The translations under genes and the position numbers were made by a program. Positions 3,566 through 6,346 of a stretch of DNA of 64,000 nt are shown here, piece by piece. The stretch's first letter is position 1, and every line of letters starts with the position of its first letter. The stretch is from a phage, in NCBI GenBank assembly GCA_014816185.1, contig GCA_014816185.1_4095.1. The stretch is one strand, 5' to 3'. The notes under the pieces are model-generated. The model made no database searches. It had not been told where the DNA came from and was given only the letters and a program-made list of their open reading frames with translations.

Positions 3566-3907
3566 ATGCTTGAGTTTTTTAATTCAGATACAATGCTTGG
3601 TATCACGCTAATTTACATGTTTGTATTCTTGTTTTATCATTCAATTGTAATTAGTCTTTGGTATTTTAAAAGGAAAGTTGTTTTTAAATTGTATTCGTAT
3701 GATAATGTACTCTTAGTAGTATATAGCATTATACAAGGTGGGTTTATTTTATTTGGTGTGATGACATATGTGATTTACATGTTACAAATTGATAATACAC
3801 CACACATTACACAATATGTTGTGTTTTCAGGACTAATCGTCTGGTTATTGGTGTGTACTCTGTATTTTATTATTAAAGCTCGTGATAACTTTAAATGGGG
3901 ATTCTAA
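3566..3907 (+). CDS. small membrane protein, WYFK family member 1
   Basis: 113 aa; MLEFFNSDTM...WYFKRKVVFKLY; multiple hydrophobic segments. Confidence 0.55.
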   Translation: MLEFFNSDTMLGITLIYMFVFLFYHSIVISLWYFKRKVVFKLYSYDNVLLVVYSIIQGGFILFGVMTYVIYMLQIDNTPHITQYVVFSGLIVWLLVCTLYFIIKARDNFKWGF

Positions 3908-4245
3908 TGTTAGAATTTTTTAAATCAGATACAATGATTAGTATTACTTTGATTTATCTGTTTGGTTTTTTCTTTTATCATGCACTAGTTGTAGTACTAT
4001 GGTATTTTAAAAAGAAAATTGTTTTTAAACTGTATCCAGTGAGGAATTCATCACTAGTTCTTTACACACTTGTTCAAGGTTTGTTTGCAATTGTTGGTCT
4101 TATGGCACACTTAATTTATTGTGCCAATCCTCACTTGAACTCAATCTCACAATATATTGTATTCTTTGGGTTGTTCATTTGGTTAGTTGTATACTTAATC
4201 CATCTCATTATTCATGGTAGAGATAAAATTCGCGGAGACTTCTAA
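3907..4245 (+). CDS. small membrane protein, WYFK family member 2
   Basis: paralog of 3566 (MLEFFKSDTM..WYFKKKIVFKLY); start chosen at TAATG overlap. Confidence 0.55.
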   Translation: MLEFFKSDTMISITLIYLFGFFFYHALVVVLWYFKKKIVFKLYPVRNSSLVLYTLVQGLFAIVGLMAHLIYCANPHLNSISQYIVFFGLFIWLVVYLIHLIIHGRDKIRGDF

Positions 4246-4592
4246 TGTTTGAAGCTTATCTTGAGTTTTTAAGGAGTAGTCCAGTTGCACATTCACTTGC
4301 AGGGATTATTCTAACAACTTATGTATCATTTTGGGTAGTTATGTTTCTAGGATGGTATTTTAAACGACAATTCTATAAACGTAATGGTGAAGATTTTATG
4401 AATTCTGTCATTAATCAATCGTTGTTTGCATCAACATTGATTGCATGTATTGTAGCAACACTCACAGGAAAGGTACTACCAGCTTTTTCCGCAGTTTACG
4501 GCACACTTGGGATGATATGTTTAACTTTTATATTGACCATTAAAATTTGTTGTGTTATGATTGAACTTCGAAATAAGATACCGGAGGAATGA
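4245..4592 (+). CDS. small membrane protein, WYFK family member 3
   Basis: 115 aa; GWYFKRQFYKR motif; overlapping stop/start. Confidence 0.5.
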   Translation: MFEAYLEFLRSSPVAHSLAGIILTTYVSFWVVMFLGWYFKRQFYKRNGEDFMNSVINQSLFASTLIACIVATLTGKVLPAFSAVYGTLGMICLTFILTIKICCVMIELRNKIPEE

Positions 4593-4927
4593 TGGAGTAC
4601 TTTATTGATTTACTGCCGTGGTATATGAAAGTTAGTACCATGTACTATATTATTAGTGCTGGATTCTACTTTCTGATGTGGTTCTTTAAACGACCAATTT
4701 CAGTATTCATCGCTGATAACATGTTGCAATTAAAATTACACGCATGGTTTGGTATGGCGATGATTATGCCTATTATTCACTACTCAATGATTAGTAGAGG
4801 TTTCCGTTCTAATGGTGAACCAATTGTATTAGTATTCTATTGGGGTTCAACTATTGCATATGTAAGTTTGTTGTTGTTCCCAGTCGTTCATAAGTTACGT
4901 GCTAAAGTTCCTGATGCGAGGTACTAA
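4589..4927 (+). CDS. small membrane protein, WYFK-like
   Basis: 112 aa; MWFFKRP motif; ATGA overlap. Confidence 0.5.
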   Translation: MMEYFIDLLPWYMKVSTMYYIISAGFYFLMWFFKRPISVFIADNMLQLKLHAWFGMAMIMPIIHYSMISRGFRSNGEPIVLVFYWGSTIAYVSLLLFPVVHKLRAKVPDARY

Positions 4928-5241
4928 TGGATATAGTAACATTGATTTACACGTTGTATTCATTCTATTTCATTATGTGTTGGGTTGGATTTTTATTTGT
5001 ACTCAAGATGTTTGATTATGTTGAAAAACAGATAAAAGAATTTTGTATTCCTTTTATCGGTTCAACCATTATTAGTGTTTCTTGTGTGTATTTTTTGGTT
5101 TTTGATCCACCAGATAACACTGCAATGATTGACTTGATGTTACTACCAACAACTGTTACTTTTTTATGTAGTCTGATGCCGCCGATTAGCCGTGGGCTAA
5201 CCGAATTTAGACGCAATCAAAAGCGTAAACGAGGGATGTAA
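4927..5241 (+). CDS. small membrane protein
   Basis: 104 aa hydrophobic; translationally coupled. Confidence 0.45.
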   Translation: MDIVTLIYTLYSFYFIMCWVGFLFVLKMFDYVEKQIKEFCIPFIGSTIISVSCVYFLVFDPPDNTAMIDLMLLPTTVTFLCSLMPPISRGLTEFRRNQKRKRGM

Positions 5242-5609
5242 TGGAAATTGCTCTTATTATCTTAACTGCTATGCTGTTTATTAGTACTGTGGTTATAATT
5301 GGTAAATTCTTTTGTGTATCATTTTTAGAAACGGTATACGATGAAATTGCTGATGATTATGAATTACAAGCCGGATTTTTCATTACGTATTGGCTTAGTT
5401 TATTTTGTCTAGTCATTGCTTGGATTTTACATATCTTTAAATGGGGTATGGTAGACGGTGATCCTATTATGGCAATTATTGTTCTAGTGTTTGGTATCCT
5501 TGGTGGTGCAGTGCATAATCTAATGGTTATCTGGCAAACTGTTCAATATGTTTTGGTTCCCTATTTCGAAAAGATGCACAGTACAATTAAAAAACGTAAA
5601 CGAGGTTAG
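5241..5609 (+). CDS. small membrane protein
   Basis: 122 aa hydrophobic; coupled. Confidence 0.45.
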   Translation: MEIALIILTAMLFISTVVIIGKFFCVSFLETVYDEIADDYELQAGFFITYWLSLFCLVIAWILHIFKWGMVDGDPIMAIIVLVFGILGGAVHNLMVIWQTVQYVLVPYFEKMHSTIKKRKRG

Positions 5610-5610
5610 T

Positions 5611-5973
5611 ATGAACGGGATAGAATTATCTTTCGTTGGTCAATTACTAGTAATGGCGTATACATTTATCTTCTCACTGAATGCATTCGTGTGCATTGGG
5701 AAGTACTTCCATAAGCGACCATTATCAAATATATATGATGTAATCCAAAAGAGATATAGTCCAGCATATACTGTGTTGGGTACAGTATTCAATTTTGGTT
5801 TTATTGTATTAATAATTGGACTGTTCACATCCTCTTTGAATACAATAACCTTCGGTCTTATGATATGTTCATTGGTATTAGCCGTAATTATATGTTGTTT
5901 AGTACTACACCTTGTGATACTATTATATATAAAGATCTCTGAAATCCACCAACGTTTGGGTATGAGGAAATAA
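5611..5973 (+). CDS. small membrane protein
   Basis: start moved to ATG 5611 (MNGIELSF) after GAGG; track ORF 5548 is an upstream extension. Confidence 0.45.
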   Translation: MNGIELSFVGQLLVMAYTFIFSLNAFVCIGKYFHKRPLSNIYDVIQKRYSPAYTVLGTVFNFGFIVLIIGLFTSSLNTITFGLMICSLVLAVIICCLVLHLVILLYIKISEIHQRLGMRK

Positions 5974-5974
5974 T

Positions 5975-6346
5975 ATGAGTTACCGTGAGATATTTTCCAT
6001 TATTTCAATTATTATGTTCAGTACTGGAACACTGGTATGGTTATTATATTTCTTCTGTATTAATCCAGTGTATAATATGTTATGTAATATTAAATCAAGT
6101 GCCGGATATATCACTTTTATGGTCTTTATGGGATATTATTGTCTAAGCATTTTAGGTGTTGTTTTGGTTGTTATATTTGATGTGGGGCCAAATAGTGATG
6201 GTATGGAAATACATGAATTAATAACCATGTTTGGATGTATGATACCAACAGCACTACTGTTTGTAGCTACTGGTAGTGGATTGATAAAATTATATAATTA
6301 TTTAAAATCCATTCATAATTCCATTCATAATAAGCGTATGTCATAA
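5975..6346 (+). CDS. small membrane protein
   Basis: 123 aa hydrophobic. Confidence 0.45.
   Translation: MSYREIFSIISIIMFSTGTLVWLLYFFCINPVYNMLCNIKSSAGYITFMVFMGYYCLSILGVVLVVIFDVGPNSDGMEIHELITMFGCMIPTALLFVATGSGLIKLYNYLKSIHNSIHNKRMS

Follow-up and report, generated by a model that had tools for sequence, protein, structure and literature searches.

The window analysed here is a 64,000-nucleotide stretch of DNA (GenBank assembly GCA_014816185.1, contig GCA_014816185.1_4095.1) from an Asteriusvirus jumbo phage of E. coli. Between positions 3566 and 6346 it encodes a tandem array of eight small membrane proteins, which we call M1 to M8. On comparative evidence, the array is a real and selected set of genes from a clade-restricted superfamily with three predicted transmembrane helices, a conserved clade order, a variable copy number and cassette-like exchange of alleles. 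The family most plausibly alters the host cell membrane early in infection. At a probability of roughly 40%, we favor the reading that the array is a battery of proteins, each acting on inner-membrane components, which it would modify or block in the service of exclusion or protection.

The region from 3000 to 7000 is 99.8% identical to Escherichia phage JP4 and 99.6% identical to SP27. It shares 96-98% identity with G17, 121Q, and PBECO4, where all of the region's genes are labelled hypothetical. A sequence-only reading of the window had proposed an operon of eight abutting proteins of 104-141 amino acids (aa). The eight same-strand (+), abutting open reading frames (ORFs) are indeed present in the ORF listing, but the upper size is too high, and two start corrections bring the range to 104-123 aa. 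The start of M2 moves from 3895 to 3907 (MLEFFK...) and that of M7 from 5548 (141 aa) to 5611 (MNGIEL..., 120 aa). The M7 correction was made because the G17 and JP4 annotations agree on it and the orthologues in phages A4 and JNE01 begin at or just after the stop codon of the preceding gene. The 141-aa form, whose extension (5548-5610) overlaps M6 and which appears in database clusters P0038 and P0050, is probably an over-extension by some gene callers. The M7 orthologue of PBECO4 (L016 2568-2972) is intact and is left without annotation in the GenBank record.

The genes are packed tightly (Table 1). Junctions consist of one shared base (TAATG), an overlap of up to four bases (M3/M4), or gaps of 1-2 bases. 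A GAGG-type Shine-Dalgarno sequence lies 6-10 nucleotides (nt) 5' of every start, within the last codons of the preceding gene. The eight paralogous genes form a tandem array that is probably translationally coupled.

Table 1. Positions of the array genes and of the elements that adjoin them in the window.
Feature	Position	Strand	Description
NrdC.11-like P-loop ATPase gene	2728..3498	+	256 aa; PHROG 1250 (E = 3e-103); weak AAA/STAND Pfam matches
Sigma70-like promoter, TTGACA-N17-TACTAT	3508..3536	+	putative; in the 67-bp gap before M1
M1	3566..3907	+	113 aa; three helices; WYFKR; clade A; PHROG 19454
M2	3907..4245	+	112 aa; WYFKK; paralogue of M1
M3	4245..4592	+	115 aa; three helices; WYFKR; LRNKIPEE tail; PHROG 19046
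M4	4589/4592..4927	+	111-112 aa (two possible starts); WFFKR; LRAKVPDARY tail; PHROG 27396
M5	4927..5241	+	104 aa; three helices; KRKRGM tail; clade B; PHROG 33258
M6	5241..5609	+	122 aa; IGKFFC after helix 1; KKRKRG tail; PHROG 26405
M7	5611..5973	+	120 aa (corrected start); IGKYFHKRP after helix 1; no PHROG
M8	5975..6346	+	123 aa; YFFC after helix 1; HNKRMS tail; PHROG 27618
Hairpin, perfect 10-bp stem	6353..6376		array end; terminator in the G17 annotation

One superfamily of two clades

M1 and M2 had been read from the sequence as clear paralogues, and BLASTP bears this out (51% identity, expectation value E = 1e-37). The W(Y/F)FK(R/K) motif reported at the same time is present in M1 to M4, directly after the first hydrophobic segment. 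A six-frame count over the window's 383 ORFs of 50 aa or more finds it exactly four times, always in M1 to M4, against 0.011 occurrences expected from composition. M1-M4, with LW(Y/F)FK(R/K), form clade A. M5-M8 form clade B and carry GKFFC or YFFC at the equivalent position. Conservation within the array is highest in M4.

Full-length profile matches (E = 1e-50 to 1e-70) assign seven of the eight proteins to PHROGs 19454, 19046, 27396, 33258, 26405, and 27618, and M7 belongs to none. These six groups are all of unknown function and are kept as separate families. We aligned orthologous groups from the window, A4, JNE01, Klebsiella phage KP13-7, and database hits, and compared them pairwise with hhalign. 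The strongest links are M3-M4 (score 62.3, 97% probability) and M6-M8 (45.3, 93%), followed by M6-M7 (38.7), M1/2-M3 (37.1), and M3-M5 (35.2). Further group links score 23-27, and the maximum among 42 reversed-profile controls is 18.5. Pooled clade A aligns with pooled clade B over 107 columns (94.8% probability, E = 5e-8), pairing LW(Y/F)FK with IGKFFC and LRxKIP with xHxKI. Divergent members from metagenomes and an Erwinia phage match groups of both clades.

Hidden Markov models (HMMs) of the groups, searched against the 383 window ORFs, recover other array members at E < 0.01. By these profile comparisons, all eight proteins form one superfamily of two clades, which joins six PHROGs and one protein without a PHROG. 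The only match beyond the array is marginal (E = 0.0046) and lies in a short ORF on the minus strand near 52.4 kb, and we reject further family members elsewhere in the window.

The proteins had been described as carrying two to four hydrophobic segments. Their predicted membrane-protein character holds, and the count settles at three per protein, at approximately residues 10-30, 48-70, and 80-105. A basic C-terminal tail ends each of the eight. Among 57 family members from nine loci, lysine plus arginine (K+R) per residue amounts to 0.044 at the N-terminus, 0.143 in loop 1, 0.044 in loop 2, and 0.242 in the C-terminal tail. This concentration in loop 1 and the tail indicates, by the positive-inside rule, an N-out/C-in orientation. 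All eight proteins are thus predicted to have a periplasmic N-terminus and a cytoplasmic C-terminus. An AlphaFold2 model of M3, based on a 29-sequence alignment, has a mean predicted local distance difference test (pLDDT) score of 74 and places helices at residues 2-11, 13-38, 42-52, 55-74, and 77-111.

Conservation is strongest in two motifs, one where helix 1 leaves the membrane on the cytoplasmic side and a short one right after helix 3. Within orthologous groups, variability is 0.51-0.58 across helix 2, loop 2, and helix 3, versus 0.37-0.42 across the N-terminus, helix 1, and loop 1.

GC content in the region is low and the AT skew is strongly negative (-0.16), and all eight genes are labelled hypothetical proteins in public records. 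These features would suit spurious hydrophobic ORFs that arise from T-rich DNA, or decaying gene remnants. However, Nei-Gojobori ratios of nonsynonymous to synonymous substitution (dN/dS) of the array genes against G17 and UE-S1 are approximately 0-0.47 in informative comparisons. The reading frames are therefore under purifying selection, as dN/dS lies far below 1. Flanking genes fall in the same range, with 0.04-0.16 (the upstream ATPase) and 0.11-0.17 (the downstream 220-aa gene). Several genera also hold full-length orthologues, every gene has a ribosome-binding site, and the motif occurs well beyond chance. Spurious or decaying ORFs are effectively refuted.

Arrays in related phages and their turnover

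When 1.84 billion representative proteins were searched exhaustively with a clade A profile built from 29 sequences, only 14 relatives emerged at E <= 0.001, thirteen with a length of 100-119 aa and the last a fragment of 56 aa. Indexed searches gave 34 and 22 proteins, and those with a named source all come from an Asteriusvirus-like phage or an E. coli record. A tblastn search with M4 found 45 phage records, all of them Escherichia, Salmonella, or Klebsiella jumbo phages, and a scan of IMG/VR returned phage 121Q alone. As judged from these searches, RaK2/121Q-like jumbo phages of Enterobacterales are the only carriers of the family, and the profile and indexed searches trace it to phage genomes and phage-like contigs. 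A Foldseek comparison with viral models yielded weak matches to membrane proteins of CBB, GAP32, Serratia phage BF, and 121Q, a hint from predicted structures that the family may be spread more widely.

The relatives examined are Escherichia, Klebsiella, and Erwinia phages and metagenomic contigs, and in all of them an NrdC.11-like ATPase gene is followed by approximately 6-12 family copies. The window has eight members. PBECO4 has seven, with a single M1/M2-type gene where the window has two, and A4 also has seven. JNE01 carries eight, including a duplicated M5. In KP13-7 there are seven assigned members and one unassigned three-helix protein, with M3 duplicated and the M1/2 type located after M3. 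Erwinia phage Hallingskeid carries ten, and EJP2 about 6-7, as counted from gene sizes only. The metagenomic loci hold six (L006), nine assigned plus three unassigned three-helix proteins (L008), and about eight (L010). The duplications are thus lineage-specific, affecting M1/M2 in the window, M5 in JNE01, and M3 in KP13-7. The gene order M1/2, M3, M4, M5, M6, M7, M8 is kept in the Escherichia phages. In most relatives the clade A block precedes the clade B block; in L010 and Hallingskeid the two are partly interleaved.

The alleles turn over quickly. DNA identity between A4 and the window is 90-96% up to position 3500, the end of the ATPase gene, and collapses beyond it. The ATPase proteins of the two phages are 96.5% identical, whereas their syntenic array proteins are only 25-67% identical. 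UE-S1 reverses this pattern, with 59% identity in the ATPase and 79-98% in the array proteins. These opposite patterns indicate that array and ATPase were exchanged independently as cassettes. The region around the array is mosaic between phages too.

Two additional genes accompany some of the arrays. The first follows the array in A4 (L004 6136-6687), KP13-7 (L003 10057-10644), and metagenome L006 (5417-6001) and encodes a lipoprotein of approximately 190 aa with a lipobox. The L006 copy matches DUF1190 (PF06693). In the window, an unrelated 220-aa gene (6389-7051) takes its place. The second encodes a 42-aa, non-membrane protein inside the KP13-7, Hallingskeid, and L010 arrays, and is absent from the window. 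Its product is conserved (MKPEQWIIEDMRAMR...LLTWYVKVLNSKE), and its C-terminus resembles the N-terminus of M4-type proteins. Genes of this length lie at L003 7076-7204, L010 1533-1661, L013 7957-8085, and L019 4832-4960. The one in EJP2 is known by its length and matching position.

Putative promoters, the upstream ATPase and gene context

The 67-bp gap between the ATPase gene and M1 contains a putative sigma70-like promoter. The pattern TTGACA-N17-TAnnAT occurs eight times in the window versus 0.55 expected, always on the + strand (832, 3508, 20526, 41657, 42439, 42715, 56804, and 58876). Several of these copies have a GTACT-rich spacer in common (TTGACAGTACT...TAGTACTAT). The array closes a long block of small + strand genes, among them those for endonuclease V, homing endonucleases, and a protein kinase annotated as a host-transcription inhibitor. 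This block converges on a minus-strand block of RCC1-repeat genes. We infer early expression of the array from the sigma70-like promoter and this early-type gene context.

The hairpin at the array end is at best a weak terminator on the + strand, as an A-run precedes it and no T-run follows on that strand. It also holds CAGTACT/AGTACTG. The GTACT element in the promoter spacers and in the hairpin after M8 may be the site of a shared regulator. An identical 33-bp module (GGGTTGACTTCGGTCAGCCCTTTTTGCTATAAT) is found at 1253-1285 and 2667-2699, in two intergenic regions upstream of the array. In it, a TTGACT-N18-TATAAT promoter has its -35 hexamer within the stem of a terminator hairpin, and related copies of the module occur in the G17, UE-S1, A4, and KP13-7 loci.

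The NrdC.11-like P-loop ATPase is approximately 38% identical to a T4-type protein often mislabelled as thioredoxin. It is not a member of the family but is the constant upstream neighbor of the array, directly adjacent in most relatives. The array starts at or near the ATPase stop codon in A4, L006, L008, Hallingskeid, and EJP2. That the first array gene abuts this stop codon in most relatives implies co-transcription. Tight co-evolution of ATPase and array is rejected because their alleles reassort in A4 and UE-S1.

This arrangement could suggest that the paralogues are subunits, in fixed proportions, of one hetero-oligomeric inner-membrane complex (a channel, pore, or scaffold) that the ATPase might assemble or drive. 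The position of the array behind the ATPase agrees with such a complex, as do the constant order of orthologous groups in Escherichia phages, the precedence of clade A over clade B in most relatives, and the minimal gene junctions with embedded ribosome-binding sites. At least six paralogues under purifying selection are kept in every lineage. However, copy number varies even between near-identical phages (seven in PBECO4, eight in the window) and overall spans approximately 6-12. ATPase and array alleles reassort independently, and ATPase homologues occur with no array downstream in PA5oct and a T4-like phage. Tight gene packing is also normal in phage genomes. We consider a single complex rather unlikely.

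Other features of the neighborhood were also noted. The 372-aa gene at 1541-2659, just upstream of the ATPase, is a homing endonuclease in the JP4 annotation. No counterpart was seen in the UE-S1 locus examined, and in A4 its place is taken by a different, larger gene. This gene is probably a mobile insertion. On the minus strand, 7032-21779 encodes approximately 13 tandem paralogous RCC1/WD40_RLD-repeat proteins of approximately 390 aa each, labelled 'regulator of chromosome condensation' or 'DNA condensation protein'. These genes are mosaic, with 73-95% identity to A4. A second tandem array on the + strand (21599-25382) comprises approximately 17 tiny genes (59-69 aa) with the pattern M..KEYY...KL....L.LI.RY and is interrupted by a 219-aa gene (22579-23238). 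The length of this gene is close to that of the 220-aa gene at 6389-7051, and going by similar length only, the two might be related.

Possible roles and comparison with known systems

In the favored reading, host RNA polymerase would transcribe the array from sigma70-type promoters early in infection, and the proteins would insert into the host inner membrane. The conserved N-terminal third, with helix 1 and LW(Y/F)FK or GKFFC at the cytoplasmic face, together with LRxKIP or xHxKI after helix 3, would form a common scaffold. The more variable hairpin of helix 2, loop, and helix 3 would give each paralogue its own target. As a battery, the set may occupy or block different inner-membrane components, most plausibly to exclude the DNA of superinfecting phages or to blunt a membrane-targeting attack. 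Superinfection exclusion and host-membrane targeting would be plausible roles for the array; the sequence-only reading had named exclusion and the targeting of host transporters. Lysis regulation, also suggested there, is the least supported.

Several points weigh against exclusion or protection. The case for it is built solely from the evolutionary pattern and the genomic context, and the family is not described in the papers found by literature searches. The whole neighborhood is mosaic, so allele exchange is not specific to the array. Orthologous groups keep their order in different genera, which suits separate, non-redundant roles or a complex no less than it suits a battery of independent blockers. 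Transmembrane helices were called by a hydropathy script and AlphaFold2, not by a dedicated topology predictor. Finally, the C-terminal codons also hold the ribosome-binding site of the following gene, and this may account for part of their conservation.

The proteins could instead be small modulators of host inner-membrane transporters or enzymes, comparable to SgrT and AcrZ, that serve metabolic or ionic takeover. Their size and membrane location fit this role, as does their place in an early host-takeover block beside the kinase annotated as a host-transcription inhibitor. A conserved scaffold with a variable hairpin would suit it as well. Conserved core transporters of the host, however, would not obviously drive 25-67% allele divergence within one genus on the same host species, and Pfam and NCBIfam scans found no homology to any known regulator. 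We regard such modulators as unlikely.

A more specific form of the favored reading sees the array as a polymorphic phage inner-membrane immunity battery. Its members would join a conserved scaffold at the cytoplasmic face to a hairpin of helices 2 and 3 that diversifies rapidly. Each would counter its own weapon at the membrane, for example a rival phage's route of DNA entry, a bacteriocin that forms pores, or an abortive-infection effector that depolarizes the membrane, and phages would swap cassettes as these weapons change. We offer this as a speculative proposal with a low probability. In a variant of it, the paralogues would together make up a single membrane machine of the phage, with the neighboring ATPase in its service.

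RaK2/121Q jumbo phages are candidates for phage therapy, and most of their genes are reported to be uncharacterised (83% in phAPEC6). The present comparison unites six PHROGs and a protein without a PHROG as one clade-specific family of predicted inner-membrane proteins, with 6-12 copies in the relatives examined and quick turnover. If exclusion or protection were true, the array would bear on which phages to combine in cocktails and on how RaK2/121Q phages cope with membrane-acting defences. It would also affect how multi-copy membrane "immunity" arrays of viruses are understood. Were the proteins to form one complex, it would be a new phage-built membrane assembly. Under either reading, the array is a compact, deletable 2.8-kb experimental target.

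Pfam and NCBIfam scans gave sub-threshold noise only, with no holin or colicin immunity family at E up to 1. The best PADLOC model was PycTM (E = 0.029, 12 bits), which is noise. A sequence-profile search of the Protein Data Bank (PDB) with the family found no match, and fold searches gave no informative match.

Class I holins such as lambda S105 are approximately 105-120 aa long, with three helices, an N-out/C-in orientation, and a charged C-terminal tail. The array proteins resemble them in size, in their three helices and predicted orientation, and in a short, highly charged cytoplasmic tail, so they could act as holin- or antiholin-like proteins that control lysis timing. However, they lack sequence or profile similarity to holins. 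Their hhalign scores against lambda S105 are 9-14, at background, versus 23-62 inside the family, and there is no holin match in Pfam, NCBIfam, or PHROGs. Membership in a holin family is rejected. The neighbors of the array are the ATPase, homing endonucleases, endonuclease V, and RCC1-repeat genes and not a lysis cassette, and neither endolysin nor spanin is annotated in JP4 positions 85000-122000 around it. The sigma70-like promoter and early-type gene block also argue against a lysis role. There are 6-12 divergent tandem copies without a Lys-containing dual-start motif, and the eight copies in the window would be unprecedented for holins. We consider control of lysis timing very improbable.

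T4 Imm and Sp, P22 SieA, and lambda RexB are, like the array proteins as predicted here, small inner-membrane proteins from early or accessory genes that evolve fast and vary between related phages. These known examples are single genes, whereas the array proteins come from tandem genes and have no Pfam match. Homology to Imm is rejected, as the Imm-like protein of Hallingskeid scores 10-16 against the family profiles, which is background. Hallingskeid carries this Imm-like gene besides its array.

E1-type pore-forming colicin immunity proteins are approximately 100-115 aa long, have three inner-membrane helices, and form polymorphic families. Bacteria can stack divergent immunity paralogues in tandem, as orphan immunity-gene arrays. 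The array in the window differs from these in being phage-borne and without a linked toxin gene, and its proteins have no match to the immunity families in Pfam or NCBIfam. ImmE1 has an N-in topology, whereas the array proteins are predicted to be N-out. The two share a similar size, three helices (predicted for the array proteins) in the inner membrane, and an organization as divergent tandem paralogues.

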